From: Cenococcum geophilum
Taxonomy: Eukaryota
Direction of reading: 5' to 3'
Length of the DNA stretch: 64,000 bases
Assembly: GCA_050273025.1 (NCBI GenBank)
Contig: CP158635.1
Span: forward strand, 17,484,001-17,548,000
Shown here: positions 4,320 to 52,652 of the stretch, in pieces
How the letters are laid out: every line of letters begins with the position of its first letter
Position numbering within the stretch: the stretch's first letter is position 1
Made by a program: the position numbers and the translations under genes
Notes under the pieces: generated by a model
What the model was told of the DNA's origin: nothing
Database searches by the model: none
Seen by the model: the letters and a program-made list of their open reading frames with translations, nothing else

Positions 4320-4727
4320 ATTCGCGCATGCTGCAAGGAGAATGAAAGATTATCCCCACATCGTGACACGCCTTAGTGAAATATAACTGATCTTTCTCGA
4401 GGCAAGGCTGGATAGGTGTCACCCCACAACGCTGGGGTTTAGGATCCCTGCAACTTTCTCTCCAATCGCAGCACGGACCGCTGAGCGTTTACGGTTAGCG
4501 TGGTTTTTCCAGCCAACTTCACGTCCCGTGGTGCTGCATAATAGATCAGTCTATAGTCCACCCAATGTCTGAGAGAGGTGGTGAGACTAAGATGGAATAT
4601 ACAAGGCTTTGTGCATCCTAGAAGACTCGTGTTCATCGCTGGTGACGTTTCGAGTATCCCGCCCGCCTCATTTCCATCTGAAGAATTTCCCCTACTCCAA
4701 CTTTGGTTGAGAGTCCGCCGATTCACC

Positions 4728-19727: not shown

Positions 19728-22372
19728 TATAAGGGTTATTTTGGCCCTTACTCGGCTACATCGCCTAGGGGCTCTTAGGGGTCGCCAAGGCTAGCCTCGG
19801 CTAGCCCTTGGCACCTCCTTATAAGTACCCCAGGCTTACAGCCCTTCCCTCCTCATCGGTTCGTCTCCGTACGAGGCTATTGCCTACTCTTTACCATATC
19901 GTCCTCTTCCATCGACTCCCTATATGACTCATGCTCGGCTTGCCTGCTCCCTACCGTACACCCTGGCAATACTGCCTTACATTCGAACCGATCCTACACC
20001 CTCGCGGGTAGTAGCCTGCAGCAAGCCGAGGGCTGCGCCCTCGAGCAAAATCACGATCCTCCATTTTTACCTAGGACGATCGCGTTCACTGCGACACAGC
20101 AGGTACACCAGCAGATGCCTGGCAGATCGCATCCGCATACAAAGGTTCATTGGAATACGGATTAGGTCCTCTACCTTACCTAGGACGATCGCGTATGCTG
20201 TAAAGCAGCTACACCAGCAAGACGTCTGGCAGATCGCATCCGCTTACGGTGGTAGATACGGATTAGGAGATAAGGGAGACGGTAGCTACCTGGCCAAGGG
20301 TTAGGGGTTATCCGGATCGTACGCGATCATCTCTCGACGCGATTGGTATACCCGCATACGATCGACAGTGCAGCGGTGCAGCTCTGCCCCGACGGCGACC
20401 CAAAGGTGATTTGATTGCTATCCGAAAGCTTTCTGGTAGAAGTTAAGGGGGATCCTACGCGATTAAGCTTGCAAACACTCTATAGGCCAACCGCGGTTTA
20501 CTCGCTACAGAGGTCCCACTAACAGAGATTGGAAGGTTAAACGTCCTTAAAGAGATGTAGCTACCCTGGAGGCTATCCGATTGCTATTTAATGGCCATCC
20601 GAAGAACTAACGGCTAGTTTTTAAAGCTATAGCTACTACCCTCTCTTCCAGATTAAATGCAATTAAGGGCTACTGCCCAATCAGCTAAAGGGCTGCCGAG
20701 ACTAAACCGTAGGCGGTTGTCTTATTAAGCTACGGCTTACCTTAAGAGCTTCGGCTTAGAGATTCTATGTGATCTTGTAAGCTACTGCTTGCTTTAAGAG
20801 CTATAGCTTGCCCAAGAGAATGGCAGCAGCTTAGAGATTGTACGCGATCATCTTTCTGCAAGGCTTTGGTCGCTCCAAGAGCTCTAGCTTGCATTAAGAG
20901 CTACAGCCTGCCCAAGAGAATGGCGGCGGCTTAAAGATCCTATGTGATCTCTTACGGAGCTACGGCTCCGACCTGGAGACTCTTTGGCTGTCAGCCAAAG
21001 GGCTGCCGAGACTTAATCGTACGCGATTGTCTCTTCTGAAGTTATAAGCTTAGCTTATGAGATCCTATTGCGGTTAAATGCCATCCTTAAGCTATAGCTA
21101 CAGCTTTAAGAGCTACGGCTTATTGAGATCGTACGCGATCTCTTTATAAGGCTTTAGTCGCTCTAAGAGCTCTAGCTTGCATTAAGAGCTATAGCTTGCC
21201 TAAGAGAATAGCAGCAGCTTAAAGATTGTACGCGATTATCTCTCTGTAAGGCTTTGGTCGCTCTAAGAGCTTTAGCTTGCATTAAGAGCTATAGCTTGCT
21301 AAAGAGAATGGCGGCGGCTTAAAGATCCTATGTAATCTCTTCTTATTGCTAATATTACTCTGTAATAACAGTGTAATTTAAAAGGAAGGAAACACGCGTA
21401 TAGCTATTTAGCTATTACTTCCTTACAAAAACTAATTACGCGGCCGGGGGAAGGCAATTAAGACGTTAATTTAAAGTCTTTAAAAGAGCTACGTCTTATA
21501 AAGATCGTACGCAATCTCTTAGTAAGGCTTTAGTCGCTCTAAGAGCTCTAGCTTATATTAAGAGCTATAGCTTACCTAAGAGAATGGCAGTAGCTTAAAG
21601 ATCCTACGCAATCTCTTAGTAAGGCTTTAGTTGCTTTAAGAGCTTTAGCTTACTTTAAAAGCTTATAAAACCCTATTAATATCTCTCTAAACCCCTTCCG
21701 GGACAAGCCCTTTATAATCTCCCGCTACCGTAAGGTAATAGAGGGGGTTAACTGTAAAAAGGGGGGGGGTAATATAAGGGATATTCTTGCGATTAAGCCG
21801 GCTCTAAGTAAAGACTATTTGGCTGTCAGCTATAGAGCTATTAAGACTTAATCGCAGGCAATTATCTCCAAGACTGATTATATACGATTAAGTCTTACCC
21901 TACTAGCAGACGCTCTTTTCCTACCTAAATTAGGCCTTTTTTCCTACTGGGTTTTGGCTATAGGTTAAGGTTTTTATTAAGGCTGCTTGGCTAGTCCTTT
22001 TCCCCTATTTCTTTATTCCCCTATATAAGTAAGGCTTTTATACTACTTACCTTTCTATATATAGAATTAATCTATTGGGATACGGGCTAGAGGCTAGCCC
22101 TAATTAAGGGGGGGGCAATATAAGGGTTATTTTAGCCCTTACTCGGCTATATTACCTAGGGGCTCTTAAGGGTCACCAAGGCTAGCCTCGGCTAGCCCTT
22201 GGCACCTCCTTATAAGCACCCTAGGCTTATAGCCCTTCCCTCCTTATTAGTTTGTCTCCGTACGAGGCTATTGCCTACTCTTTACTATATCGTCCTCTTC
22301 CATTAACTCCCTATGTGACTTATGCTCGGCTTGCCTACTCCCTACTATATACCCTGGTAATACTGCCTTATA
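19728..22372 (+). mobile_element. Non-autonomous LTR retroelement (TRIM/LARD-like, 2645 bp), related to Gypsy W
   Basis: 254-bp LTRs at 19728-19981 and 22119-22372, TSD ACTAC on both sides, PPT AAGGGGGGGG at ~22106-22115. No gag/pol; the interior is tandem repeats plus two segments homologous to the 3' region of Gypsy W. Confidence 0.92.
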
Positions 22373-23361: not shown

Positions 23362-24708
23362 TAACTCCAAGAAAAAAGGAGCTCTTGCTATACCTGGCCT
23401 AAAAAGACTAAAACCAACTAAAAGAACCCTGAAAAACACCTAGAGAATCCCCCTAAGATGCATATATTGTAGAGGAGGCATACATTAAATAACGGTAGTT
23501 TATACTCGCGTGTGTCCGCTAAACCTATGCCTAGCAATAGCCCTCTATAATAAGAATAGGCGAATACTATACTATAAAGCGGGAAGACCTTTATTAAGAA
23601 GGCATCTAATAAAATATAAAGCCTATTAGACGCGTTTAGTATCCGTAATTATAGGGGAGTAACTGTTAGCTATAATAAACCAATGCAGCTAGCAGAATGG
23701 CTCCACCAGTCTAGCGAATTTTAGGCGCCCCTTTAGTAAACCCTTAATTAAATCCTCTAACGGCTAAGTAAAATTAAAAATAAATAAAACCCTTTTTACT
23801 AGCAAGCCGTACCTAGGCTACTATAGCTGCGCTTTTATAGTATAGGGAACCTATCCCCCTTAAGATAATAACCGGGTATATAATTATAATAAAACTAAAT
23901 ATAGAAAAAATAGAGTAACTTAGGGGATAATTAGAAATAGAAGTCCTTATAAAGATTTATAAAGAGGTTTATAATACTATTATAGTCTAATACCTTAGGA
24001 GCGGAGATATTAGAGTTACCCTAAAGGACTAATAGGTAAAGAAATAAGCCGTATGGGTAGGGGATAGGCTAGGAGAATGTATTAGTATAAAAGTGCTCCG
24101 TAAAGATTACCTAGTTAAAATCCTAATAGTCCCCCTAAGCTTTAGGGTAAAAAAGGGACGCTAGATAGATAATATAGCAACTATATATAAAATAGTAAAA
24201 TAAACGGAACGCCTTATACTAGGATTTAAGATTACCTATATTTAATAGCTTTAATAAGAAAATATAAATTAAGTATATAATAAGAATAATAAGAGGATAT
24301 AAGGGTTGCCAGAGACTTATTAGGGAGTCGCTAGTTAAGCGTATGGCTTCCTTATTGTTAGTATATATATACTAGGAATATAAAAACTCCTTATCTAAAA
24401 AGGTATTATTATAAATGGCCTTATATATAACGTAAGGCTTTATAACTATAAACTCCGCCTAAAATAATGCTATTACTATGTATAATAGGGATATACCTAA
24501 TCTATATGCGCAGTATAGGTGTGCTACGGCTACTGTATAGGCCCCTATAATATAAGACACTACTTAAACTAAGACTAAATAAAATACGTAAACTGCCACT
24601 AAAGCATATATAAGGCGTAGGAGAGAGAAGACTGTATTAAATATAGGCGACGGAAGGTAAGGGCTTAATAGCTACGGGAATAACTATACGCTAGGTTATA
24701 TAAATAGA
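23362..24708 (+). mobile_element. Tad1-like LINE copy A (5' UTR + most of ORF1; 3' part missing)
   Basis: Colinear with the starts of copies B (26349-) and C (43487-). RIPed CCHC knuckles (C..C..WGH...C / C..C.GPH....C) near 24468-24563. Similarity stops at ~24708. Confidence 0.88.
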
Positions 24709-25811
24709 TATTATTAATATACGCGGTAATAAATATATTAAGGAATTTGCGAAGCGTATTATTAATATATTACTAAAACGTACTAGGACTATTCTTTATA
24801 CTAAATAGCATTACTAGGCATTTAAAAAGTCCCTATTATATACGGAAAGTTGTATACTTTTTATCTCCTTTATAAATACGGATTTAATTAAAGGTAGTAA
24901 CTATATTAAGCTTTATAAAGTATTATACTTTTATTAAGTAGTTAAGCGTTTCTTAAAACAGAGGAATTGGATATTAGTTTTAAATTATAATTATATTTAG
25001 GGCTTAATAATTAATATAGAACCTTAAGCCTCCTTTAGGTTTTTTAATAAATAGTTTTTTTTATTTTTATTTTTTTATATCCGATTGTATTATACTACGT
25101 ACAATACTGCGCATGCAGCCTCTAGGCTATGGCGCTATAGTTCTATATACATAAATCCTTTCTAGGCAGCTTAACATATACTAGTAGCTAAGTGGACACT
25201 CTAGCCCATTTTAAATACTAGGGGGAGCTCCTAGCGAATTGGTGTCTTGTCCTGGTATTTTGCTCACTACTGTCTAGTTTATACCAAAATCGCACTAAAG
25301 AAATCCTAGCTCTTTTATCTATTTCTGCCGTATTCTGCCGTTTCTAGAGTAGAAAAAGCGCTCTAAAAGATAGATTTTTTTTTCTATAGTTTTGCACATA
25401 AGAATAAGAGAAACAATATAGCTTACTAGCTTGAAAGTAGCTACCAATTACCCCTAAGCGACTTTTTATTCTGTACCTATTTTCCCCTTCTTGCTAAAGA
25501 AATAGGTAGGGAATTAGTAATTAATAGCTACTCTCCCTAAAAGTAGGCTATTAATGGTATTTTATAAGGGCGAACCTCGTTACATAAACCCACTCCCATA
25601 GGAAAATTTTCATGAGGTTGTCTGTATAGGGTATAAACACCAATTCGCCTATACACCTTATATTTAACGTGCTAATGGTAACACGGGCCGGTCCCCTTCC
25701 CCTATCCCCTACTATAGCTACCCTAGCAGTGCATCGTCTGCGGTACGCCTACGGTGCGCCTACGGTACGCCTGCGGTCCTCTATAGCCTGATTGCCTATA
25801 GCGCGACAGCC

Positions 25812-26070
25812 GTAGACCGGTTGCAGTAGAGGTCGTCTACAGTATAACGGCTGTAGACTGGTTGTAGAAGGTCGTCCGCTCTGCAGCAGACAGGTTGTAG
25901 AGGAGGTCGTCCGCTCTGCAGCAGACAGGTTGTAGAGGAGGTCGTCTGCTCTGCAGCAGACAGGTTGTAGAGGAGGTCGTCTGCTCTGCAGCAGACAGGT
26001 TGTAGAGGAGGTCGTCTGCCCTGCGGCAGACTGTTATAGAGGAGGTCGTCTGCCCTGCGGCAGACTGGTT
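25812..26070. repeat. 35-bp GC-rich tandem repeat with internal hairpin
   Basis: Unit GTCGTCTGCTCTGCAGCAGACAGGTTGTAGAGGAG, about 6 good copies plus degenerate ones. Preceded by an 11-bp CGGTACGCCTR array (~25741-25775). Confidence 0.9.
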
Positions 26071-26089
26071 TTAATAAATAGTATAAATA

Positions 26090-26348
26090 AGGTAAATAGT
26101 AATTAACTAGGCAAACAAATTCTTTCCTTAAGTACTCTTTAAGGTATTATCGTATTATAAGTAGCTCTTTTTGTAATATACTATATAACAGGCTAAACTT
26201 TAGTGTTATACTAGGTTTAAGTTCTATCTTAAAATTATACTCGTCTTAATATAGGGGTAGTTAGTTTATAAATCGTTTCTTAAATATATTAAATAAATTA
26301 TAATATTTTTAGGTATAAGAGGTCGGGGGTTAATATATTACTTTAGTT
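26090..26348 (-). mobile_element. Gypsy X, distal fragment (pol just upstream of RT; truncated)
   Basis: Minus strand de-RIPs to ..YHDLFDVFEK..DQLPPHR.EYDFKIELEPG..PKFGPLYSMS.EEL....YL.E.L.K.F.RP. It is contiguous with 40848+ once LINE B is removed. Confidence 0.75.
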
Positions 26349-29300
26349 AATATTATATATACCTAAAAAGGAGCTCTTGCTGCACCTGGCCTAAAAAGAC
26401 CAAAACTAACCAAAAAGAACCCTGAAAAACACCTAGAGAATCCCCCTAAGATATATGCATCGCAGGGGAGGCATACGTTAACCGACAGTGGCTCGCACTC
26501 GCGCGTAACCGCCAGATCTACGCCTAATAACGGCCCTCTATAATAAAGACGGGTGAATACTATACTATAAAGCGGAAACACCTCTATTAAGAAGGCATTT
26601 AATAAAATATAAAGCCTACTAGATATATCTAGTATTTAGAATTATAGGAAAGTAACTATTAGCTATAACGAACTAATATAGCTAGTAAAATAGCTCCGCT
26701 AATTTAGCGAACCTTAAGCACCCCTTTAGTAAACCCTTAATTAAATCCTCTAATGGCTAAGTAAAATTAAAAATAAATAAAAAACCCTTTTACCGGCGAA
26801 CCGCACCTAGGCCGTTATAGCTGCGCTTCTATAGTATAGAGAACTTACCCCCTTTAAGATAATAACTAAATATATAATTATAATATAACTAAATATAGAA
26901 AAAGTAGAGGGGTTTAGGGGATAATTAGAAACAGAAGTCCTTATAGAGATTCGCAAAGAGGTTTATAATATAGATATAGTCCAACACCTTAGGAGCGGAG
27001 ATATTAAAGTTACCCTAAAGGACTAATAGGTAAAGGAATAAGCTATAAGGGTAGGGGATAGGCTAGGAGAATGTATTGGCATAAAAGTACTTTATAAAGA
27101 CTACCTAGTTAAAGTCCTAGTGGTTTTTATAAGCCTTAGGGTAGAAAAGAGACGCTAGGTGGACAATATAGTAACTATATAGGAGATAGTAAAACATACA
27201 GAACGCCTTATATTAGGCCTTAAAATTACCTAAATTTAATAGCTTTAATAGGAAAATATAAACTAAGTAAATAATAAGAATAATAAGAGGATATAAGGGT
27301 CGCTAGAGACTTGCTAAGGAAACGCCGGTTAAATATATAGCTCCCTTATCGTCAGCATATATATACTAGGAATATAAAAACTTCTTATCTAAAAAGGAAT
27401 AATTATAAATAGCCTTATATATAATGTAAGGCTTTATAACTATAGACTACGCCTAAAATAATACTACTGCTATATATAATAGGGATATACCTAATCCATA
27501 TACGCAGTATAGGTGTGCTACGGCTACTATATAGGCCCCTATAATATAAGACACTGCTTAAATTAAGACTAAATAAAATATATAAACTGCTACTAAAGTA
27601 TATATAAGGCGTAGGAGAGAGAAGAATATATTAAATATAGGAGGCGGAAGGCAAGGGCTTAATAGCTGCGGGAATAACTATATGCTAGGTTATATAAATA
27701 AAAATAATAGGTAATAAGCTAGGGGGACGCAGGTGCCTTTTTAGCGTTTCCTACCTTTAGTACTAGGGGGCTAGGCTAGCTATCCCAAGCCTTAATAGGC
27801 CAGAAGCGGCGCCGCGCGATATTACTAGACTGTATAGGGATATAAGGGTTATAGGGGATATAAGGGAGAGGACGCCCTATAGGAAGACCCCTATAGATAG
27901 CTATAGTAAGCTTAAGACTAGGATAATTAAGAATTAGATTTAATATAGTAAATATATTATTTATAGCCGACCTATTAAGGGTATATAGCTAGCTAGTAAG
28001 AATAGGGAAGGAACTGGAGATAATAATAGATTTAAATATAAAAGCGCTAGTAGGAACATAAGATACGGGAATAAAAAGCTCTATATAAAATAAGTAGTAA
28101 CTAGGATATAGATATAAGAGATAGAAGTTCTAAATATCCTAGAAAAAGTAGAAATAGAAGAAGTAAGAAATAAAAGAGAGGCAAAGGACCCTTACTGGGG
28201 GTCCGCTACCTATCTATTATATAGTATAACTGCGGCAATACAAACTACTGTCTTATAAGGCCTTTACTAGACAGTTTAGACCTAAAGAAATACTATATCC
28301 TTGCTATATAAGAGCCGTACTATAATACCTATATATAATTAATATACTACCCCTAAGGATTCCAGCTCCTATATAAACCAAAAGTAGCTATACGTGTATG
28401 CTTTATAATTAGTAAGGCTATTAGCCTATCCTTATAGTTATAGTAGGCAGTTAACCTAGATATTGCAGTTATAATAATTTAGATATATAGGGGACTGGTA
28501 TAAATTATTAATATATATAACCCTAGTGTAAGGAGATCTTGTAGATAGGGGGCTATAAGGACACGATTGTGGAATAGGATAGATTGGTAAGAGAGACGAA
28601 TCCTTAAGGAGGTAAGGCCTCTGGGATTGTGGAGACTATATACTACGGGCACGTGCCTCTAGTACGTGACCGGCGACCATCTAAGGGGCGTCCGGGGGTT
28701 ATCCTAAGGGCAACCCGAGGTGTCCGCAATAATATCCCTTATATTACCCCCCCCCTTCTTGCGGTCGGCCCCTAATCGCCATTACCTTATGGTAAGGAGA
28801 TTATAAGGGCTTGTCCCGGAAGAGGTTCGGAGAGATATTAAAGAGGTATCGGTATGCCGCTATATATTATCTATCTATCTAACCCCTACTTTAAACTCCT
28901 AAAAAACCTTAATAAGGAAAAAACATGACTGGAGAAAAGATATAAGGATTGCTAGAAAACCTATTAGAAGCTTACTGGAAGTATATTAGTAGCTACCTAG
29001 GCTAATATAGGGATTTTTATACAACTCTGCTTTTAAGCCTTTATGCCGGTCTATAATTAATCACAAGTATTATAGGCAATTTGGTGTTCTAGTATAGTTC
29101 CGTAGAACCTTTTAGTATGGGATTTAACGTATAGAGCCTTGGCTTGCCGTCGTCTTTAACTGCTAAGATATAGTCTATAATTCTTTCTTATAATCCTTTT
29201 CTTATAATCCTCTACGTTACTAACGCATTACTCCTGTATTTACCCTTAGGCTATTAAATACGGTTAAGGTATTAATTAGTTAGTTAAAGAGACTTATCTC

Positions 29301-29588
29301 TTAAAATTTGGTGTATATGGTTTTAAATCTAATAGTCCTGTGCCGTATATTTAGTATAGCTCTACTACCTAGCAAATAGGGACATTTCGCGATAGTAATT
29401 ATAGCTATTATGCAATTGTTAAGAACGTCTATAACGTTATTCTTTAATACTATAGTATTGTTTTAGGTCTAATTTAACCTATATACGTCTTTAATTTAAC
29501 GTCTTAATTACCTTCCCCCGGCCGCGTAGTTAGTTTTTATAAGGAAGTAATAGTTAAATAACTTATACGCGTATTTCCTTCCTTTTAA

Positions 29589-30752
29589 ATAGCGCTATTG
29601 TAACGGAGTTATATCGGCAAGGTTGCGGCTATTTACCAGAAGGGTATTAGACGGTAAAGTATAAGGACACCTTTACTTATTAAGCTGCTCCTTTTCCTTA
29701 ACACCTTACTTTCCTATTATTAACCTTCGTCTAATTTTAGACGTATCTTTAATATATTATTAAGATTTTCTTCTTTTTTATTATTAATTTAATATACCTC
29801 TTTATTTTCCTACTAACTACTCTTCTAAGTAAATTCTATAGCGTATCCTAGCCCTACCTTTATATATAAAACCCTAACCCCCGCTAACCCATAACTAGTG
29901 CTAGTCCTACCTAAATAATTTTGCCTGTACGTCTTTAAAAGACTAGAAATCTAATAATAGGATTCTGGAGGCTTATAATAAGACGCACTATATTAGATCT
30001 AATACCTTTAGTCCTTATAATTAATGCATGCGTATTAAGAGCAGCAGTTACATTAAGGTAAGTTTTTCTATCCTTAATAGATTTCCATTGCTAACTTTAA
30101 GCTTTAATAGCCTAGGCCTAAGTGGCAACGTTCCTTTAATATCCTTAACTACTATATCACCCGGGCTCTCTCTCATTCTAGCGCAAATACTAAACAACTT
30201 GGCCAAATTTAAGACTATGCTATAGCTATCTACACTACCTATAATTCCTAGCAAGCTAGCTAGTAACGCCTAATATAAGAGTAAGGTTAGTATACTAAGG
30301 ATAGGGTGCGTAATAGGGGTAATAAGAAGAAGGTCGCTGTCTACTATAGAAAGGAGTTCGCGTATACGCGTTAAGTTTTAAAAGAGTATAATATAATGCG
30401 GTATTAGGTAGGTTACCCTTTAGGTACCTAGCGGATAGGTAACTAATAATTGCCGTAGTAAGGTCTCGGTAGTTCTAGATTATGCCAGCTAGCTAACATC
30501 TCTATTTATTCTAGGCTTAAGCGTATCTTTATTAACTATAAGCTTACGCCACAAGAGCTTCGTTAGTATTGGTTTGGACCTAATATTAGTGTTAAGCGTT
30601 TAAAAGTCTCTACTCTAGCTACACCTTATTATCCTGCCCCTATTTTTATACCTACTCGTACGCCTATTAAGGCATCTAGATCCTATTCTTATTAGCTATT
30701 ACTTAGTAGCTTAATAGACACTAATCCTACTCCTAATAATAATAAGGCGTAG
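29589..30752 (+). pseudogene. Antisense, spliced Zn2Cys6-like gene carried by Gypsy W (~346 aa before RIP)
   Basis: Exons 29589-29828, 29899-30057, 30111-30752 (240/159/642 nt, all phase 0). Introns GTAAAT..GCTAAC..TAG and GTAAGT..GCTAAC..TAG; TATAAG ~50 nt upstream. Exon 2 reads C*SYLNNFACTSLKD*KSNNRILEAYNKTHYIRSNTFSPYN*CMRIKSSSYIK. Reverting only RIP-type changes gives CQSC-x27-C-x8-CDQC-x7-C-IE. Confidence 0.7.
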
Positions 30753-31384
30753 TGGCTTTTTAGATTAGGCATTTATGGTTTAGACTTTTAGGATTCGTTC
30801 TTGTATATAGTAGCAATTAAGGACCTTAATTAAGTGCTCAGGAAGGCCTTATAAGGCTTTTAGAAAGGGCTTAAAAGCCCTAAGAACAATGTTCCTGGTA
30901 TAAATTAATAAATGGGAATATAATTCTAGTAAAATGCCCTATTAACTCTATGCTATATATATGGAAAGGCTAAAAACCTATCCTGCCTTAGGCCGTAGCC
31001 CTATCCCTATGGTTTCCGGAGCCTATCCGTTCTATATCCAATTTAACCTATTTACTCTTTTCGCGAGCTTTCTTCCTAGGTCGCGATAACACCGTAGTAT
31101 TAGAGCACTTTCTACGACTTGTAGATTGTGGACCTTAGTCCCAATATTCTTTTAAAATATCTTCGCAATAATTAAGGTAATCCTCTGGTTCCTATATAGA
31201 GTCCTTAGCGGGCTAGCCTAGCTATTTAACTTTAAATTAAAGCTTGTTCTTAACAGACTTATAGCATAGTATAGCTTTAACCTTATACCGCTCGCCCACC
31301 ACCTTAGGATGTTTAATTAGGCCTAGATAAAAGTTCTTTTCTAATAGTAGTCTATGCCATAGCTCTAGTAGGTTTATGTAAAAC

Positions 31385-34300
31385 ACTAAATATATATAGG
31401 CTATAGATGGGGGTAGCTGGAGACAATAGGCTAGCTTACTAATTTATTCCTTAACTTAAAAGGGACCTAGGTATCTTATATTGAGCTTCTTTAATAGTTA
31501 ACGGGTCTTAATATTTGTTAAATATAATAGAACCTTATCGCCTACTCCGAAATACTTATCCTAGTACTTACGGTTATACTAAAGTCTCTACTGCACTTAA
31601 GCATCTTATAGGCTCTACTTCGCATGCTTCTATTACTCCTCCTATTCCTAGAGGTATCCTTATACTCTCTAGTGGATATCCTTAGACTTCCTAGTAGGAT
31701 CCTATAACTAATTATACGGCCTTAACTAGTGATTGTTAGGTATACCATTAAACCTAAATAGTCGAACGCTATAGGCAATCTGGATTAGTGCATACTTATA
31801 CAATATATATTGCTTTAAATTATAAGCGTACTCCGCGTACGGAAGTAGCTCGCACTAGTTATCTTACTAGTAGTTCAAATATATCCATAGGTAAGACTCC
31901 AGTTCCTAGTTCTAGCGTTCCGTTTACCCATCCATCTATAGGTAAAAAGCCGTACTATACTAGTGGTCTATCTTTAAATAGAAGTATAGGTCTAACCAGT
32001 ATTAGCTTATAAAGACGCTGCCCCTATTAGTAATAATAGAGTGTAGCTAATCTACTTTAAGAAAGCATTTCTCCTTAATTAGGTTAGCGAGCTTTTATAT
32101 ATTAATCGTCTTATTAACAGGAAGGTATTAGATATACTTTAAAAACCTATTAATAAGTACGAGGACCGAATCGTATGTTTATCCTTAGCTATCTTTAAAT
32201 AGCGGGAGATCCGTAATAAAGTCTATAGCATAATATTACTATGGCTTACTAGCGGGGGAAACTAATTTAAGTAGACCCCATAGCTTATACCTGCGGATCT
32301 TATATACTTAACACTTCTTATAATAGCTAATATACTCCTTTGCTTCCTAATTAAGCCTTAGCTAATAGTATTTACGCTAAAGTAATTCCACTGTCTTTGC
32401 TTAACTATAGTGGCCGCCCAGAGGATCATTGTAATTCTTTATAAGAATCTTCTATCGTAGATTTACTTCTTATAGCACCCAAACCTTACTACCTCTACGT
32501 AGTAGGCCCATCGGGTCTAGTTCCCAATAGTGGCGCCTAGCAGCTTCCTTTCCGTCACGTTTCCGGTCTACTTCCGTATTAAGGTTAGTATAGGAAGCGT
32601 CCCTCTATTACACCTTATAAATGAGATCCGTTAACCTTTCGGATAGTTCCCGGGTAAAAGCTATTTCGTCCTATACTACTCTAAGTATAAGACTAGATAG
32701 TACCATAGATCTTACAACTCTTTAATGCGTATATATTAGGAAGGCCGCTATAAGGTTAAAGTCCTTTAGTTATTATAGGGCTCCGAGTTCCAATTACTCT
32801 ATAGCTTCACTATTTGTTTAAGGGAATAGCTTAGTAATTAGAGATAGTATATTACTAGGTTCCGAGAATATATCGGGGATATTCTATCTAGGTATATTTG
32901 GACCCTTATTGGCAATAGACTGGGTACTAGCTAAAACGTTAGTAGAAACCAATAGGGCTTATACCGCCTAAGACTTAGTGCATAGAGCTATAGGTACTTA
33001 AGCATCCTATACCCGGAGCTTATTCTGCAATATAGGGAGTAAGATATCTATTATCTGTTTTCCTTCTCCCGTTTTAAAGCCTTTGGCATAGTCTAGCCGT
33101 CGTAACGGTCCATTAGCAGGGTTATTTTCCCCTAGCTTATATTTAATCTTAAAATTAAATTGCGTAAGCTCTTCTACCTATCTAGCTTATTAAGGTATAA
33201 GCTCCTTTATAGTTATAAAGTAGCGTAGATTATAGTAATCTAAGAGTACACAAGTAGTATAGCTCGCGTGCTTAAGGTAGTATCGCCACTATTTAAAGCA
33301 GTCGACTATAGCCAGTAGTTCCTTATCATGGGTATAATACCTAACTTTAGGTCCCTAGAATTTTCTGCTATAAAATACTACTAGTCTTTAATAGAGTTAG
33401 GTAGCATCCGGATACCTATTAGGTTGCAGCAGGATACCAATAAGGGCAAAGTTTGATACATTAGTAATTATCATTAATAGCTAATCTAGGTTAAAATGCC
33501 GTAGTAATAAAGCTTCTATAAACTTCGCGCGAAGTTCCCAAAAGGCCTCCTAAACCTTTCTGGGCTATAACTATGGCTTATACTATTTGGTTAGTCCCTT
33601 CTTAGTTTTCTTCCTTACCGCCTTTAAGCTTTTTGCTCCTTAGGTTGGGTTTTAGGAAGCTTCTATAATATAGTTAAATAGGTATTGGGCAACGTCTAAG
33701 TAGTTATAGATAAAGCGCCTGTAGAAATTGGCAAAGCCTAGGAACACTTAAACATCCCAATAGCTCTCTAGCTCTGGCCACTCCTAGATTATCTACACCC
33801 GTACTAGGTCTATAACTATATCTATAGACGTTATAATATAACCTAGGAACTCGACCTGCTTAGTATTAAAGATATACTTTAACGCCTTAGCGTAGAGGCC
33901 CTAATTATCCAAACGTTCCAGCACTTCGCGGATATATTACTCGTATTAATCCTTATCTTCTAAGTAGATTAAGATATTATCTAAATAAACAACATATATA
34001 CGGTCGACTAGTCCCCCTAAGGCTCTGTAAATATACAATTAGAATATCGCAGGCGTATTAGCTAGCCTAAAAGGCATTACCAGATACTTAAAGTGGCCAT
34101 ATTAGGTCTTAAAAGCGGTCTTCCACTTATCCCCTTCTTTAATATAGAGCCTATAATAGGCGTCTTATAGATCTAGCTTCGTGAAGATCTTTGCCCTAAA
34201 TAGTTGATTTAGCATTTTACTAACCAGTAGTAGTAGGTAACGGTTCTTAATTATAATCTTATTAAGACTGTAATAGTCTATATATAGCCTTATAATTCTA

Positions 34301-37105
34301 TCTAGTTTTAGGATAAAGAGGATCAGTATGCCTAACGGCGACTTACTGGGCCGGATTTATCCCTTTTCCAGTAAGCTATTAAGGTACTCCTATAGGATCT
34401 TAAGCTCTTTACGCAAGAGGTTATAAATAGAAAGATTTGGCGGTTACTTACCTTCTTCTAAATTAATTGCATAGTCATACTCCGAGTTCTATAGTAGGAC
34501 TTTAGCTCTCCTACCTAAAAATACCCTTAGTAAGTCCCTTAGGCCTATTAGAATATTTAACAAATTAGGGTCGCGTTTATCCTTTATATTATTGTCAAGT
34601 AGGTTCCGGAGCTCCCTTAAAATACTTACAGGCAGCGTTGTGCGCTATAGTGGTTGCTTATATATAGTTGCCACTATACATTAAACCGTTTTATGCGGTA
34701 GCCAGTAAAGGGTAGGGAACTCCTTAACGCAGCGTTTAAGGTGCCATAGCATACTCTCCGCATATTACTTAAGCTAGAGTAACCTATAGCGGTTAAAGTA
34801 TCTCATAAGATCCTTAAGATCGCCGCCTCCCTACAATGTCTCTATAACCTATCCAGTAGTTCCCTATAAGGTCTCTATTATAGAGGGGTTATTACCTATA
34901 CTAGGCTCTATACCTATCTTGCTATTAAATAGGGGTTAGATTTAATACTCCTTTAGGTATAGAGCGTATACTATTTCGCCTAGGGCTATATTCTCTAGGA
35001 TGTCCTTTAGGCTTATTAGTAATATACGCCCTTCTAAATCTTTATTATTCCACTATTTAAAGGCTCCAGTCTTAAAGCGTATCTTAGGATCTGCTTCTAT
35101 AAGCTAAGGGTATCTAAAGATAAGGTTATAACCTACAAAATCAGCCGCCTAAAAGGGTTGCGGGCCGACTACCTTAGTATAGTTATATATATCGGCCACT
35201 AACACTATAAGCTTATAGGCACTGTGTAGCTTAATCCAATACTTATCCAGGAAGCCTATAATAGGTTTCCGCCACCTTTATAATGGGATAAGTTTATGCT
35301 CTTTTACTAAATTATATCGTATAAGATTAATTTCGGCGCCGCTATTATATAGTGCTTAGAACTATCGTACCTCACCTATAGGGAGTATTATTTCTAGCTT
35401 AACAGCAATACGGAGAGTCTCTCCTTTTATATCTTGCCCTAGTTGCAGCTAGGAGAGGTCTATAACTAGGGCTTTTCTTTTTTTAGATTGTTAGTGCAGT
35501 TATCGCCCTACTTATTTTTCCAATAGGATCTACCTCTAGAGTTTTCTCTTAACTTCTTAAAGTGTTCCCGTAAAGGTACTAGATAGGTATTAGATTAACC
35601 CCAAGAGTCTTTCCCATTATTTAAGGTTCCTAACTTTAACCCTTCTGAAGTTCTCTTTAAGAACGGCTTCTTTAAAGGTTAGGTCTACCCTATATTACTA
35701 CTAGAGTGCCTACGCTTCTAGTAACCCCCTAGCTTCCTACCGGAAGAGGTCTAGTTCCTTACCGCATCCTTAGCGTTTAGAACCGCTCGTTTAAAATCCA
35801 TATATACGGTAATTCGCGGTAGGGCTCCTACGCGCTTTATTTTATCACAAATTACTAGCTTAATTCTAGCCTAGATAAATCCAATCTTCTCCTTCTCGCG
35901 GACGCTGCCGTCCTTATTTTTAAAGGGCTTTAGATCCATCTATTAAGCATAAGTTTCCATAAAGTTTATAAACTGGCAGAAGTCTTAACGGTCTAGCTAC
36001 GTACTATTCCAGAATTATTCTATATTGTTATATTATATAATATACGGATCTTAGGTCTAACCCTTTAGGAAGGTCTATAGCTATAGCCATATTATAATTT
36101 ACTCTTTACTAAATTAATTAAGCGCGATCTAGTTTAGCAATCGGTCTTTAATCTTGCTAATAATCTAGCGTATACGCTCTTTAGTATTATCTTATATTAT
36201 TAGCATCTTAAAGAAGTTGTCTACCTCACGAACCCAATTATCCAGCTATTAGGCGTTAGGTTTATAACAAAGTTCTAAACTACTAAAGGCCTTAGCCAGT
36301 CAGTCTATGTCCTTTTTCTATTTATTGCGTAGGTGCCTCTCTAAGTCTTCCACACCTCCTTAGGTAGGTACTAGGTAGCCCTTAAAAAGCCTTTAGCCTT
36401 AACTAGGTTATAAAAGAATTTATCTAGCTTAGATTAAACCCTACCAGATCTAGATTTGCCCTTAAAGGGTTCTAATATATTTATTAGTGGCTTCCTCCCG
36501 TATGGCTTCTAAGAGCCTTATAACAGCTTCCTAATATCCGTCTTAAAGGAGATTGGTATAGGGCTCTTAACCTTCCAAACTTAGGCCTAGGGAAGCTCCT
36601 GCTATAGAGGTAGTATTAGCACTAGTAGCTAGTGCGGGTTTCCTAATAAGCCTTAGGTCTTAAGTTAGTGTTTAGGTTTAGTTTCCTAAAGGGGTAAGCC
36701 CGCTTAGCTCGTAAGCAGTCTATATACTACTACTATGCCAATTATAGGCTAGTGGTCTTCCAAGAGGGTTCCGGTTAGGTCCCTAGTCGGACGCGTTAAT
36801 ATATTCCTCTGGTATTTCTAGCTTAAGGGAAGATCTTAAGGTCGCCTCTAGCGCTTAATCTTCTAATTGGCCTAGGTGGGACTAAAGGGGTTCCGGTTGC
36901 TTTCCGGCAGCATTATAACCGTTATAAAGGGTGTCTGCGTTTTCCTTAGCAGTAACTATAGGTGTGTAAGAGTCTTCAAGCTCCTAGAGCATCTGGGTAT
37001 TAGGGCTCGTTCGGCCGTCTTACCTAGAGGGTTATATTATCGCAATCTCTCGCTATTAGAGGGACCTTCCTGCCTTTACGCGACGGCTTTCCATAAGGTA
37101 TCCAT
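31385..37105 (-). pseudogene. gag-pol of Gypsy W (gag, protease, RT, RNase H, integrase); 3' end approximate
   Basis: ATG at 37105. RT relics KWKTAFKT*YGHFKYLVMPF (~34070-34130) and VYLDNI (~33975-33990); RNase H YYTHDKELLAIV (~33305-33340); integrase IAMDFITDLP-like (~32205-32235). Confidence 0.9.
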
Positions 37106-40100
37106 GGAGCTTCCATTTAGGTTATCGCGAGATTTTAAGGGAGGATAGTGGTTATAAATAAAAGATATAAATAAACAATCTGGTTCTTAAAGCTAACTAC
37201 CCTTCCAAAAAGAGTAGAAAGGATTTAAATATAAGAGGATCTTGTAGATAGGGGGCTATAAGGACACGATTGTGGAACAGGATAGATTAGTAAGAGAGAC
37301 GAATCCTTAAGGAGGTAAGGCCTCTGGGATTGTGGAGACTATATACTACGGGCACGTACCTCTAGTACGTAATCGGCGACCATCCAAGGGGCGTCCGGGG
37401 GTTGTCCTAAGGGCAACCTAAGGTGTCTGCAATAATATCCCTTACACCTAGGGTTAAAGGGGTTCTATAAATAGAGAACATTATATTAGTAATAAGCTTA
37501 CTAAAAACTAAAGGTATAGAGTCTATCTTACTAGGAGATATAAACCTCCACTACCCGCGGTAGGGGGGTATTTATATTACTGCTAATTAATAGGTAGAGT
37601 GCCTACTAAAAGCTATAAACACCTAGGGCCTTAAGTTAGCCACCCCCCTAGGAGCAACTATATGGTAATAAGGAACCTCTAAAAGTATAATTAACCTTAT
37701 ATTTATAGACGAAGGCCTATATTAAAGACTTAAAAGGTATAACCCCCAAAAAAATAGGCACTTGCCTTAGACTATATCCCTATCCAAATATAGCTAGATT
37801 TAGATATTAAGGCGTAACTAAGTAGCAAAAGATATATAATAAGGAAGCTTAAGATAAATAGTTTTCTTAATATAGTTAAATAACAACTCTAAAACCTAGA
37901 AGAAATCCACCTAATTCCAAACAAGCGAGGCTTATTAGCTACCCCTAAGGAAATTAACTAAAGACTAAAAAGGATCTAGGTAGTAATTAAAAATAGGCTA
38001 AAAGAGTACTGCCTAGTCTTAAAACCGGGCCCCTACACGCGATATATATGGTCCGCATAATACGCGGTTCTTATTACTAGCTAATAATAAGCAAGAAGGA
38101 AATATATAAGTAGCTATAACTTTAAAGATAAGAGATAATATAAAGACATAAGAAACCAGTTAAAGAATACCCTAAAGAAAGAAGTAAGGAATAACTAGAG
38201 ACGGTTTATAAATAAGTACACTTTTAACCCGAGCCTTCCCTATAATAAGGGCCTTTGGGTTATAGCAAAATAGGTAAAGAAAAAGGTAGAGCGTTTAGTA
38301 AAAGACCTATACTTACTACCCCTATAAAGAGTAGGGGAATTATAGGCTACTAATAATAATAATAAGAAGGTAAAGATCCTTATAAAAAGGTTCTTTTTTT
38401 AACTGGCTTTAGTAGACCTTAGTAATATTACGGGTAAAACACTAGTAACTTGCCTAAGAGTTAACAGCGATATAATAACAGAGGAAATAGCCAGAACTAT
38501 TAGCCGCCTTTTAAATAATATAGTATTAGGACCAGATAGGATTCTAAATAAGGCCTTAAAAACCTATAGACTACTTATAGCACCTTAGCTTATAGATATA
38601 GCCAGGGTATACTTTACCGTAGGCTACTACCTACGACTTAGAAGATCTATAACGACGGTTATTCTATAGAAAGAAGGTAAAGTAGATTACTTAATTCTAG
38701 GAAGCTACCGCCCTATTGCCTTAAAAAACACCCTTAGTAAGATCTTAGAAAAGGTAATAGCGGACCATATAGTAGATATGGCTAAGAAATATAATTTACT
38801 ACTATAAAGCTAAATAGGGGCAAGAAAGAACCGCTTAATACTATTAGTACTTACGCTACTTATTGCTACTATTAAATACGCATGGGCGATGCGAAGGGAC
38901 TTTATAGTATTAATACTTAGCCTAGATATTAGCGGCGCCTATAATAATATACCCCATAAGCGTCTCCTATATATCCTTAAGGTAAAAGGCTTCCTAGAAT
39001 AGATTATATAATTTGTTTAAGGGTTTATAGGTTAGAAAGAAATATTACTAGTCTTTAGCGGATACTAGAGCCCCCCTATTATAGTTATAATAGGAATACT
39101 ATAAGGATTACCCCTCTCGCCTATACTCTTCCTTTTCTTTATAAGCAACCTACTTAACTTCTTTAAGAAAGGGGCGACCTAGGGGATAGGCTTTATTAAT
39201 AATATAAACCTAATTATATACGGGCTAATAGCTATAGAGAATTGTAGAACACTAGAGAAAGCTTATAATACCTATATAGAATAGGCAAGACGATATAAAG
39301 TCCAATTCTTATTAGAGAAATACTAGCTAATCCACTTTATAAGAAAACGTAACTAATCTGTAGATCTTTAGCATATAATTTATATCTAAGGCTTTAGGGG
39401 TTAACTAGTTTAGGGCTTAAGGGTATTAGGAGTATAGGTAGATAGTAAGCTCTAGTAAAGCGTATATGCGGCGTAAGCGGCCTATAAGGGCTAAGTATAG
39501 TATATCGTATTATCCAGGATTATTAATTCTATATAGGGTCTATACTTTTAGAGGTTACGCCTACTATATATAGTAGTTGTCCGGCCAACCATAACGTATA
39601 GGTCCAGTATTTAGGCCATTAGAGAATCTAAGAAAGGCCCCCCTAAATCGCTCCTTAAACCACTCTAAAAGGTCTAGATAGCTTGCCTTTAGAGTATAAT
39701 AGGCGGATATAAGCGAACGGCTACAGTACTGCTTAAAAAGGAAGCTAATATTCCCCCCCTATAACTATATATTAAAGCCGCTGTAATATAAAGGGCGTAA
39801 AATAAACGCAACTTTAATGTTATAAAGTATATTAAGATACGCCTAAATATACTATAGAGGGACCCTAGGGCGCCCTATAGGAGAATAAACTAACAACCCT
39901 AAAGTAGGGAAGATATATTAGAGAAACAGGTAAAAAAAAGTAGAAGAAGAATAGTGCTGCTTTAGGGCCTAGACCTATATAGAGGAAGAAGGGAAACGTA
40001 TAAGAGGCCAGTAAAGATAATAGTAAGAGAGAAAAAGAAGCTAAAATAGAGCATAAAAGAACGCTAGGAAACTATTTACTATAATATAATACTGGCTAGA

Positions 40101-40847
40101 CTAATGCTAAAGAGGTATATAGGAGTTAAAGGTATAGAGGCTAACTAAGGTAAGAGAAACCTAAGCCGTAGTATAGTTAACGTTATAGGGGGTAAACACT
40201 CTAGAGCTCTAAGAAGGCCTAATAAAGGCAAAAAAATATAATAGTAATACTCTTAAGAATAGGAATAATAGGACTAAAAGATTGGCTCTACTAGGTGGGT
40301 GTCCTAGTAGGTAGCCTAAGATGTAAATATAGCTAGCTAAGATAAACACTAAAATACGTAATACTGTTATACCCCTTACGCACCAACTAAGAAGTAATAC
40401 TCTTAGTAGCTAGCATAGAGAACTATAATATACTACTCTTAATATAAAAAGGCCTTAAGGCGGTTACCTAGTGGCTTATTAGCTAAAATATACTAAACCA
40501 GTTCTGGGTTATAAAGGAAATAGTAATAAAGGGCAAGGGAGGCGAGCAATAAGCGCCCCTTAATGACTCTATAGTAGTAAAGTAAAGTTTATAATACTAG
40601 CGCGTCCGTAGGCTTATTACGGCAGTAGTGGTTCCTAAAAAGGTTAAAAAGTAAGGTAGTAGAGCACTATAGGTAACTTGTAGGCGCCTTGTAGGCGAGT
40701 CCCTAAAGGTAGGGAGATAGATTACGGGTTTTTCTTAAATAGAGTTTTCTCCCTATATGTATATAAGGAGTAGCCCGCGTAGGCCCAATAGGGATCCGAA
40801 TTAGACGTTAAGTAATAAATAATATATATATATATATTACTTTAGTT

Positions 40848-42991
40848 CTAACGCCTTCTTAATATCTTTTAGTATTATAGTAAAGATCTTATAGTTTTAT
40901 TTTCTTGCTAATAAATAAAAGGGTATAGCTTATATTATATAAATTTTAAGGGGTTTTAATATATTATCTTCGCATTCTTTACTATAATTAGTAGTTATAA
41001 CTTTATTATATTAGTTTAAGGTTTATAGTAAGGGCAATTTATATTATATTAAATTTAAATAGTTGTGTGTATATTTATAGGGTAAGTGGTATTTTAAGTA
41101 ATAATTTCGGCAGTAGGTTATACGGAATTTTAATATTTCTTTAGCCTAGCTAATTAAAGAGTTATATTATTTTAGCTATCTATATCTAAGTATTACCTTA
41201 TAATACTTTAAGGGTATTATAAATAGGGAAATATATTTAAGGTATTTGCTTATTTATATCTTTATAAAAGCGTAGTATGTTAATTTACTGTATATTAAAG
41301 GCTTACCATTAAAGCCTTATAGGCCTTAGGGCTTATTAAGTTTCTTTAAATTTAAGCTTTAAGTTTTCGCATAGTTTATATTAATAAAGCCTATACTAGT
41401 AGCTCCACTATCTATAAGAATTTATACTTCCTTTTATTTTTTAAGTGTTTAAATTTTGCTAATTATATTAAGGGAGTTGTATTATATATTAGTATTAAAA
41501 AAGCCTAGATACTTATACTCTTCCATTTCTTATCCTAAGGCGTAACTTAGCCTTAGGATAATTTATTTTCTAAGCTAACTAAAGACGAGATACTTTATAG
41601 TAACCGAGTATAATTTAAGAATTAGAAGGAACTACGGCGGACCTTTTTAAAAGGGTAAGTTTAATAATTCCTTTAAATATATCCCTTTTTACCGCATCTA
41701 AAGCATTCTCCATTTATAGCTTAAGTTCTTTATTTATTAGTTCCTAAGGGTATATAGAATTAGGTGGTATTAAGGTCTATAGGGTTATATATAGGGCTCT
41801 TAGGTCTTAGAAACAGATCGCGCTTTAGGGTATATACTAGTTTTATAAAGTTTTAAATATAAGATATAGTTAGCTTTAGAAAACGAGTCTATTTATTATA
41901 TTAAAGGTTCTTATTAATTCGTTAATATATTATAGCAAATTTGGGTAAGTCCTTTAGCAGTTCTCTACCTACTAACTATACTCTAATTTTATTTAAAATA
42001 GCTTAACAGAGAGCAGTAACTCTAGCGGCTTTATTCTAATCTAGTTTACTAATAAGGCCTAAAAATTCTAAAAAGAAGCTGGTAAAGTCTCGGTTCTATT
42101 ATTATAGGGTTTTAAGTTTAGTAATAGCTATATATTTACAGCTAGTATTATTATATATTTATTTTAATAGAGAGATAAAGATTTTAAAATTAACGAAGGT
42201 GCTATTATAAAAGAATAGGTCTATAGTTTATATAGCGTCTTTACTTAAATAAGACATTCTATAGCTAATCTTACTAGCTTTAGTAGAGTATTAGTTATAA
42301 ATTATTAAAAGTTTAAGACGGAGCTTAGTTATAAAGGGATATAGGTTATTTTTATTTTTATTAAATATTAGAAGGTTAGGGAGTTTTTTAGATTTTATAG
42401 TAGGTATTAGGTTTATTATAGGTACGGGTTAAGCTACTATTATTAGTTTAAGGTTTATATTTAACAGGTTAGGTTTATATATAGTTATTTTAATTTCGTT
42501 TATAGGTATTACTATTAGGGTCTTTAATATAAGTGCTTTAAGGTTACGAAGCTCTTTATAGATTACTCCCATTAATTACTAGTACTAAGCTTTTAATATC
42601 ACTTGCTATTAGGCTAAAGCATCTATAAAAGACTATTGCATTATAGTTAACGCAAGGGGTTTAAGTTCGTTTGCTATTTTAATAGTAGTTATTTTAACGT
42701 AACGTAATATAAGGGCGTAAAGAGACTTTAGGGAAGATTTAAAGAAATAATATAAATTTTATCTAAATCTAAGGGTATATAGCTCTTACTAAGAACAAGA
42801 TATTATATAAAAAGGAGAAAGGAATAACAAGAGAGTTATATATTAAATAGTTAGGGGTCTTAGTAGTTAATATATACGCACATATATACGCGGTCTTTAA
42901 CTAACTTTAGTAGAATTTAATTAATCTAGTAGAACTTAGTAGAATTTAGTTAAAGCGTTAGAATTTATCTATTAAGTACTTTACTAAGACA
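40848..42991 (-). mobile_element. Gypsy X, proximal part: 5' LTR (42787-42991), gag and protease region; very heavily RIPed
   Basis: LTR with TG..(C/T)A termini on the minus strand, followed by a self-priming-type site. Gag-like relics (LPN...FN.NKNN.YPF.TKLRLKL, ~42315-42385). Continues across the LINE B TSD into 26348-26090. Confidence 0.72.
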
Positions 42992-43022
42992 TTCCCACTA
43001 TAACTAGGCTAATCCCGTTACA

Positions 43023-43141
43023 TCTTTTAAGTTATAGGTAATAGCCTATAGTAAAGTATACTCTAGCTATATCTATAAGCTAAAATACTATAAGTAGTCT
43101 ATAGGTCTTTAAGGCCTTATTTAAAATCCTATCTAGTCCTA
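43023..43141 (-). mobile_element. Tad1-like LINE copy D fragment, left part (target of Gypsy Y)
   Basis: Reverse complement of the ORF2 segment seen at ~38525-38648. Joins 61171+ across TSD TCCTA. Confidence 0.82.
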
Positions 43142-46100: not shown

Positions 46101-47371
46101 AATAATAACTTTAAGACCTAGAAGAAATCCACCCAATTCTAAATAAGTAAGGCTTATTAGCTACCCCTAAGGAAATTAACTAAAGACTAGAAAGAATCTA
46201 GGCAGCGATTAAAAATAGGTTAGAAAAGCACTACCTAGTCTTAAAACCGGGCCCCTATATATAATATATATAGTCCACATAATACACAGTTCTTATTACT
46301 AGCTAATAATAAGTAAGAAGGAAATATATAAGTAGCTATAACCCTAAAAACAAGAGATGATATAAAGACACGAGAAACTAGTTAAAGAATACCCTAAAGA
46401 AAGAAGTAAGGAATAACTAGAGACGGTTTATAAATAAGCACACTTTTAACCTAAGCCTCCCCTATAATAAGGGCCTTTAGGCTATAGTAAAATAGATAAT
46501 AAAAAAGATAGGGCGCCTAGTAAAAGACTTATACCTATTACCCCTATAAAGAGTAGGGGAATTATAGACTACTAATAATAATAATAAAAAGGCAAAGATC
46601 CTTATAAAGAGGTTCTTCCCCTAACCGGCTCTAGTAGACCTTAGTAATATTATAGGTAAAACACTAGTAACTTACCTAAGGGTTGACAGCGATATAATAA
46701 TAGAGGAAATGGCTAGAACTATTAGCCGCCTTTTAAATAATATAGTACTAGGACTAGATAGGATTCTAAATAAGGCCTTAAAAACCTATAGACCATTTAT
46801 AGCACCCTAGCTTATAGATATAGCTAGGGTATACTTTACTATAGGCTACTACCCACAACTTAGAAGATCTATAACAACGGTTATTCTATAGAAAGAAAGT
46901 AAAGCAGATTACTTAATCTTAGGAAGCTACTACCCTATTACCTTAGAAAATACCCTTAGTAAAATCTTAGAAAAGGTAATAGCGGACTATATAGCAGATA
47001 TAGCTAAGAAATATAACCTACTACTATAAAGCTGTTAGGCCATAGAGACGCACTAGCCGTAACCGGCTTAGCGCAGGCGAGGCGCAGGCGAGGCGCCTAC
47101 AAAACGTAGTCGCCCCGCATCAGAGAATAGCAGAATTCAGTTCTACAGTTCTACTTCATTAAGAACCAGATACTCTTCGCATCCCGTTACTATTATCACG
47201 TTACTACATACCCTAAGGACCTTAGCGTCCTAACAGTACTAAATTCTCATCCCTTTTTAGGGGTAGTGGCCTAACAACATAGCGGTCTACTAAGGCCACA
47301 ACTACGTAGCAGCAACCCTCTGTCGAGAAGACGACCTATATTTATTAACTATATCGCAGCCTATTGACCTA

Positions 47372-52125: not shown

Positions 52126-52652
52126 CACTTAGAGCAAGGGAAAGTCTTCGCCCTTTGGGCGCTGGCGGAGACCGTGCTTGGCGCCGGTGCGCACTAAGGC
52201 CTCAACATCCTTCGTGAAGGACTTCTGGGCGGCAGCGACGCGAGCATCAAGGTCAGCCGTGTCCCCGCCAGCAACCCGCCGGCGCTCAGCCCTGTCAATG
52301 AGGGCGAGCAGCTCGTTTAGGCGGCCATGGAAGGCCTTAGGGACCTAGTCTATTAGCCATCAAAACCTAAACCAACGCACTTAGACGTACTAGTTGGCAT
52401 GACTTATTTAGTCATCGGCAGTACCCGCAATTGCGGTTAGCCTACTTACCGCAGGTAGCCCGCCTAGCAGTAGCTACATACTTGGCGTAACGGAGGCAGA
52501 TTAGTTCCAGCAAAGCTAGGGAAGCGGCTTACGAGCGGCGTGGGAGCTTCGACGGCGCCTAATAGGGTTAGTAACAGCTACAAGCTAGTATAAAAAATAC
52601 TTACGGAAGACTCGCAAGCAGGCAAACCAACGGCTTAGCGCTTGCGATTTAT
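52121..52652 (-). pseudogene. Antisense, spliced Zn2Cys6-like gene carried by Gypsy Z (3'-truncated)
   Basis: Exons 52652-52605, 52558-52391, 52344-~52121, all phase 0. Two 46-nt introns GTAAGT..TACTAAC..TAG and GTACGT..GCTAAT..TAG; TATAAA ~100 nt upstream. Exon 2 reads APSKLPRRS*AASLALLELICLRYAKYVATARRATCGK*ANRNCGYCR*LNKSCQL; five Cys are intact and the sixth is TAC, a G->A change from TGC. Confidence 0.8.

Follow-up and report, generated by a model that had tools for sequence, protein, structure and literature searches.

An antisense gene under purifying selection, encoding a cysteine-cluster protein, in a RIP-mutated Ty3/Gypsy chromovirus of Cenococcum geophilum

The analysed DNA (hereafter the window) is a 64,000-nt stretch of the Cenococcum geophilum genome (assembly GCA_050273025.1, contig CP158635.1, positions 17,484,001–17,548,000), which beyond ~18 kb is AT-rich in composition and carries a strong RIP dinucleotide signature. 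The element of concern here, W, is a RIP-mutated Ty3/Gypsy chromovirus of 8.9 kb at 28527–37446, with gag-pol on the minus strand; 'antisense' below therefore means the plus strand of the window. Its two LTRs are 94% alike over a 213-nt core, with 12 differences that are all transitions, and are bordered by a 5-bp target duplication (CCTAG at 28522–28526 and 37447–37451). Assignment to the chromoviruses follows from this LTR pair and duplication, the order RT–RNase H–integrase and a C-terminal chromodomain, with the pol domains identified via an 83%-identical unmutated relative (L131, see below), in which RVT_1, RT_RNaseH, rve, Integrase_H2C2, SH3_Tf2-1 and Chromo are all found by Pfam above cut-off. 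The pol stop codon lies at 31048–31050 and the LTR edge near 28744, so that pol and the 3' LTR are ~2.3 kb apart; an earlier note on this DNA was right that the region is long, although it put the size at 2.6 kb. An extra open reading frame antisense to gag-pol occupies this region (i.e. the aORF-3R arrangement). Coordinates are collected in Table 1.

Table 1. Features of element W, its antisense gene and the antisense gene Z, in window coordinates
Feature	Position	Strand	Remarks
3' LTR	28527–28744	−	Outer edge and duplication from sequence; inner edge approximate
Polypurine tract	28745–28770	−	From sequence; adjoins 3' LTR
5' leader with upstream ATG position	29558–29793 (L131 852–1085)	+	uORF or optional 78-codon N-terminal extension
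Exon 1	29794–30057	+	88 codons; start and Cys cluster; 7 stops in window copy
Intron 1	30058–30110	+	53 nt here; phase 0, two codons after last Cys; branch site 30090
Exon 2	30111–30407	+	99 codons; 9 stops in window copy
Intron 2	30408–30458	+	51 nt; GTAGGT donor in 173/178 copies, TAG acceptor in 173/178
Exon 3	30459–30752	+	97 codons and stop; aromatic-rich start, Pro/Ser-rich tail, acidic end; 3 internal stops in window copy
pol (protease region, RT, RNase H, integrase, SH3, chromodomain near 31140–31290)	31048–35490	−	RIP-broken in window; far end approximate
5' LTR	37229–37446	−	Matches 3' LTR
Z antisense gene	52121–52652	−	Six Cys/Tyr columns, C-x2-C-x11-C-x7-C-x2-C-x6-C (30 copies)

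W itself sits inserted in a repeat of another element, and nested LTR pairs surround it (23373–27063, 37447–46271, 43512–44209 and 47033–53134). A small element at 19728–22370, whose terminal repeats measure 252 nt and whose internal repeats measure ~100 nt, has two segments in common with W, in inverted orientation: one from the leader (~29489–29620; 81% over 132 nt to L131) and one from the stretch adjoining the polypurine tract (79% over 115 nt). This small element may be a non-autonomous partner of W, in which case the leader segment would be marked as a cis-element.

The W family is large in this genome: 40 of 761 candidates were scored at 89–100% identity with the whole region, and 150 of 490 candidates were scored when the last exon was the query. 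We pooled 99 distinct copies and left out 30 loci as duplicates; the set is non-random and consists of top-scoring matches and copies with fewer stops. Linked indels divide the copies of this genome into two main subfamilies (32 with the full pattern, 47 without it), and mixed indel patterns suggest recombination between them. A metagenome scan confirmed at least 396 of 601 pattern matches, the best 80 loci of which were used. One of these 80, L131, is naturally unmutated: its GC content is 0.54 over the gene, its pol is open for 1479 residues, its exons are open and both sets of splice signals are present. Aligned with the window over 7,012 columns, it shows 83.5% identity, and 1102 of the 1145 substitutions are C>T or G>A. 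The gene model below draws on tallies across natural copies together with this single intact relative, rather than on a family-wide ancestral sequence, and residues at which L131 is unusual are left undecided by such a single reference. The gene is present in all 178 sampled copies, which were located through the gene region, so this count says nothing of copies that lack it.

A real gene almost certainly lies in the region 29794–30752, and it very probably consists of three exons on the plus strand with 88 + 99 + 97 = 284 codons. The earlier note had read a ~346-aa product here, preceded by a TATA box and starting at 29589. Its antisense reading frame is real, as judged from selection, the indel pattern and the intact natural relative, but the start, first exon and first intron were misplaced and the second intron was overlooked. 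The former exon 1 and intron 1 are wrong because (i) none of the 99 copies has ATG at 29589, and L131 likewise reads ATAGCG; (ii) four of 80 codon columns are stops fixed in 99/99 copies; (iii) 1-nt indels near 29674 and 29718, each in ~49 of 99 copies, interrupt the frame; (iv) the same frame in L131 meets two stops within its first 23 codons; and (v) the proposed donor at 29829 reads GC in 34/99 copies and the proposed acceptor at 29896–29898 reads TGG in 29/99, both positions falling inside coding sequence. That exon also gave no significant sign of selection (ratio 1.14, p 0.69; range 0.94–1.56). At 29538, the place of the supposed TATA box (TATAAG), 19 of the 99 copies have TTGTAAGG and L131 has TGTAAG, and the Gln codon of the 'CQSC' motif once placed at the beginning of exon 2 is really Trp (TGG in 39/99).

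The codon at 29794 is ATG in 52 copies and ATA in 47 of the 99, is in frame with the cysteine cluster and is followed by no fixed stop up to the donor of intron 1. Among 1017 candidates, 16 database proteins match exon 1 with open frames and 63–84% identity; all 16 carry Met at the place of 29794, where 14 of them begin, while two begin 78–79 residues earlier. Acceptors at 29830–29832 or 29902–29904 were considered and ruled out, the frame being open from the ATG at 29794 and position 29902 reading TGG. The upstream ATG position in the leader is conserved, apart from RIP, in nearly all copies (ATG in 15/173, ATA in 154/173). Its frame is that of exon 1 in L131 and in the database proteins P0029 and P0034; the net offset is 0 in 95 of 173 copies and +2 in 63, the window's group among the latter.

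Intron 1 of the corrected model (30058–30110) had already been recognized by the earlier note, and the copies bear it out (donor GTRAGY in 92/99, acceptor TAG in 98/99). Its length takes nine values between 46 and 57 nt, in all three phases, over 177 copies, which rules out a conserved read-through ORF of 157–159 residues. The single 214-codon exon that was thought to follow exon 2 hides a second intron, which has the same length in 178/178 copies, contains only one shared transversion column and, in the unmutated L131, has a branch-like ACTGAC and three in-frame stops. A two-exon model of 301 codons was dropped once L131 had revealed this intron. The 'CC' read early in the 214-codon exon is Tyr-Tyr in 30/30 aligned copies and in L131. 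Two features at the other end stood: the stop codon at 30750–30752 is a stop in 99/99 copies, and the tail is indeed rich in Pro and Ser with an acidic end (18% Pro and 22% Ser/Thr in the last 55 residues; 30% Asp/Glu in the last 20). The window copy of the gene is dead, with internal stops in every exon.

We then looked for selection on the gene. Fixed-stop counts work as a control in pol, where the true frame has a stop in every copy at 1 of 583 codon columns and the other five frames at 16–25; in the region of exons 2 and 3, one minus frame also has only 1/213, and such counts alone therefore failed to single out the frame. RIP makes transitions only, so transversions were used instead: columns with a transversion relative to L131 in at least three of 178 copies were compared as nonsynonymous versus synonymous. 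In exon 1, 4/220 nonsynonymous versus 7/38 synonymous columns changed (ratio 0.10, p 2e-4); in exon 2, 2/240 versus 11/45 (ratio 0.03, p 3e-8); and in exon 3, 4/225 versus 17/64 (ratio 0.07, p 3e-9), with a ratio of 0.11 for the Pro/Ser tail alone. The corresponding figures for pol are 31/1455 versus 21/259 (ratio 0.26). Shifted frames have no nonsynonymous depletion in the same test, and cut-offs of two and five copies leave the outcome unchanged. The leader frame from the upstream ATG gives a weak signal, with ratios of 0.33–0.44 (p 0.03–0.10). For exon 1 the signal comes from the metagenome copies, since the copies of this genome alone have no shared-transversion columns there.

Indels follow the same exon boundaries. 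Net frameshifts occur in 3/178 copies in exon 1 and in 0/178 in both exon 2 and exon 3, whereas in the leader and intron 1 each 60-nt bin has indels of frameshift size in 137–169 copies. These results show that the gene codes for protein, with three frames that connect across two intron-like gaps, and that purifying selection on it was at least as strong as on pol while the W family was active; it is conserved in the manner of the element's own genes (ratios 0.03–0.10 versus 0.26 for pol).

The first exon encodes a cysteine cluster with the arrangement C36-x2-C39-x5-C45-x15-C61-x4-C66-x8-C75-x2-C78-x7-C86, in addition to C9 and H65. The suggestion that the Tyr codons derive from Cys codons is confirmed: apart from one Ser at one position, the 178 copies show only Cys or Tyr at these columns, and L131 has Cys throughout. 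Depending on the position, Cys is present in 16 to 146 of the 178 copies; in the window copy three of the eight cluster positions read Cys and, as had been stated, four of the six core positions are Tyr and need reversion. The spacing typical of Zn2Cys6 clusters is C-x2-C-x6-C-x5-12-C-x2-C-x6-9-C, to which the observed 2-5-15-4-8-2-7 does not conform. Pfam searches with three intact exon-1 proteins (P0029, P0032 and P0034) returned neither Zn_clus nor DUF3716 nor any other family at E up to 1. Pfam scans of the exons gave nothing above cut-off, and weak matches to MOSC (3/30 members), DUF19 (1/30) and DUF4054 (E 0.049) were taken as chance. Sequence searches of the PDB led to no accepted chain (single matches at E 9.6 and 0.63), and in the Atlas the best score for exon 1 was 0.77 and exon 2 had no usable match.

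AlphaFold models are of low confidence, with pLDDT values of 51 for the exon 1 cluster and 47 for a second model, which contains 17 intron-2 positions. They suggest that exon 2 starts with a long helical hairpin, followed by a beta-hairpin (pLDDT ~57–62 over residues 11–70). Foldseek searches with the models found no match at E up to 0.001. No named protein matched exons 1–3, and none of 46 candidates among viral contigs was confirmed. The protein appears to be new, in that it belongs to no described family found in the literature and databases searched.

RNA data were examined for expression and splicing. Of 24 listed RNA runs, 17 hold a small share (0.04–0.12) of L131 words, and four (X1, X9, X10 and X18) were examined, none of which has a spliced joint at either intron. 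Contigs of X1, ~90% alike to L131, cover L131 812–2127 (window 29518–30841). Their depth is ~4,500–7,000 over the gene compared with 56–62 in the flanks, and 654 for a short contig at the 5' edge. The main X1 contig spans both introns unspliced at a depth of ~5,500, and the abundant form skips L131 1959–2048, a segment that includes the acidic tail and the stop. X10 yields an unspliced contig of 8,536 nt and X9 short unspliced contigs, while 14 raw reads of X18 matched, all less than 90% alike and with partial fits, and are evidence for neither side. The depth step fits a separate transcription unit, although it comes from strandless contigs in one of four runs. The absence of spliced joints is the main result against the exon model; contigs carry no strand information and lose rare forms, so that they neither demonstrate splicing nor speak decisively against it.

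How might such a gene serve its element? The window holds a dead, RIP-mutated copy of an accessory gene carried antisense by a Ty3/Gypsy chromovirus lineage. In intact copies, transcription would start from the gene's own promoter in the leader, with transcript ends at roughly 29450–29520 and 30840, and the transcript would be spliced to encode the 284-residue protein. The cysteine cluster would bind zinc, the helical middle part would mediate dimer or partner contacts and the acidic Pro/Ser tail would recruit host factors. The protein would then be nuclear and work in trans on the DNA or chromatin of its own element, either raising transcription of the element or shielding it from host silencing. 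Tentatively, and with somewhat less than even confidence, we favour this reading of an element-encoded, nuclear, zinc-binding and trans-acting regulator of element transcription or chromatin. In our analysis, the points that may speak for it are the selection, the near-absence of net frameshifts in the exons, the intact L131, the Cys/Tyr columns, the X1 depth step, the place of the intron in gene Z and the nuclear GENE23 (both discussed below). Counted against it are the lack of a spliced joint, the lack of a family or fold match, a spacing other than that of Zn2Cys6, the poor models and the non-significant profile comparison with Z.

The same gene could instead encode a protein that acts on RNA or in the cytoplasm. 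Such a protein might bind zinc and suppress RNA silencing (quelling), or it might assist in exporting or packaging the genomic RNA, which would liken it to retroviral accessory proteins. We consider this rather unlikely. A cysteine cluster, a helix and an acidic Pro/Ser tail are the usual order in fungal nuclear regulators, which argues against an RNA-level role, and no RNA-binding family was matched. Yet the evidence for coding and selection is equally compatible with it, the cluster fails both the Zn2Cys6 spacing and Pfam, exon 2 is basic (17% Lys/Arg) and Rev-like functions are proposed for antisense extra genes in the available part of PMC7264820.

A less probable alternative is that intron retention is itself the control, with the common RNA yielding a short cysteine-cluster product or acting as antisense RNA and the full protein being made only conditionally. 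The deep X1 contig that runs unspliced through both introns, with a step bounded by the gene, is in keeping with such a mechanism, and 14 of the 16 database proteins read through intron 1 to 157–159 residues. However, that protein search admitted only proteins of at least 155 residues, and DNA or genomic-sense RNA could give the same strandless contigs. Moreover, read-through is not conserved, since intron 1 varies in length in all three phases, and the strongest selection is on exons 2 and 3, so the spliced form must have mattered.

It is more doubtful still that the gene was captured from a host and is kept for the benefit of the fungus rather than the element. Its introns are of the typical fungal kind, but no cellular homologue emerged: two word-based searches with exons 2–3 each retained a single candidate, out of 1954 and 185 respectively, and it was the same mutated fragment both times. 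Among 1.84 billion representatives, exons 2–3 gave 24 matches, of which 21 are fragments 31–100 residues long; of 16 matches inspected, 15, all from among these fragments, look like members of the W family, and the remaining one is a repeat protein with no relation to it. Selection, furthermore, worked among element lineages. The last alternative, that an optimistic reading of RIP-mutated non-coding DNA produced the gene, is true of the earlier exon 1, TATA box and ATG and is in keeping with the absence of spliced RNA in four runs, but it is extremely improbable for the gene as a whole and is refuted for 29794–30752, where selection is significant in a single frame (p 2e-4 to 3e-9), indels keep to the introns and the flanking sequence, and a natural copy is intact.

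Returning to the nuclear regulator, a broader and decidedly speculative extension, which we think improbable as a whole, is that fungal chromoviruses encode their own zinc-binding factor of an undescribed family for counter-silencing or self-activation. The version in W would then be enlarged to eight Cys and have an additional domain, and whether intron 1 is retained would decide if a short product with the cluster alone or the complete regulator is made. If true, fungal retrotransposons would have an equivalent of the accessory genes of retroviruses. In the part of PMC7264820 available, what the antisense extra genes of LTR retrotransposons do is described as an open question. To this we add a corrected gene model, selection stronger than that on pol and a naturally intact relative, through which the location of the protein, its metal binding and its effect on an LTR reporter become testable. 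Constraint on the gene in a family that counts at least 150 copies, in a genome where RIP is active, suggests that it is important for the spread of the element.

The window offers a comparison of its own, the antisense gene Z. W and Z agree in position and orientation. Both show the core C-x2-C ... C-x7/8-C-x2-C-x6/7-C, and in both a phase-0 intron lies two codons past the last Cys (46 nt in Z, 30 copies). They differ in the distance from the second to the third core Cys, which is 26 residues, with two extra Cys, in W and 11 in Z; W also has ~196 residues after the cluster. The first 20 residues past the intron share five identities (p 0.025, one post-hoc test), while the profile comparison is not significant (16/40 and 37/40 shuffles reach the score). 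Common descent of W and Z is therefore only suggested, as the profile scores do not beat shuffles. The window copy of Z lacks ~480 nt present in its sister copies immediately after 52118.

Gal4-type Zn(II)2Cys6 proteins resemble the W protein in layout: two C-x2-C-x(5–7)-C halves lie close to the N-terminus and are followed by a predicted helix and then an acidic tail. W departs from them in having eight Cys, a 29-residue linker with two more Cys and a His, and matches neither to Zn_clus nor in the PDB. Alike in its place within the element is brtn of the Botrytis element Boty, which is reportedly credited to Zhao et al. 2011. According to the available part of PMC7264820, Boty of Botrytis and Sclerotinia has an antisense ORF of unknown function between pol and the 3' LTR; the parts of PMC8365987 and PMC4227169 at hand place brtn in a chromodomain-bearing fungal element, and Figure S1 of PMC8365987 draws extra ORFs. 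Like W, Boty is thus a fungal Ty3/Gypsy element with a chromodomain and an antisense gene between pol and the 3' LTR (PMC7264820 and PMC4227169, as far as available), a likeness of described position and orientation. In the literature searched, outside which most subscription journals lie, brtn is the only fungal antisense extra gene, and there is no description of the W protein family; the word 'antisense' is absent from the available text of PMC3248453.

In plants, antisense aORF-3R genes are known from maize Grande (gene23), rice RIRE2, Silene Retand and PvRetro13. They are retained in most copies, are conserved like other element genes and have their own promoter; some of the antisense ORF proteins are nuclear, as shown for GENE23 of Grande, and Rev-like roles are proposed for such genes (all from the available part of PMC7264820). 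On the same partial source, W shares with them its position, its orientation and a conservation comparable to that of element genes, and differs in that their hosts are plants and their proteins have SMC or Transposase_28 domains or none, with no such match in W. In brief, the layout of an antisense gene between pol and the 3' LTR is already known, and what W adds to it is a protein that the literature searched does not describe.
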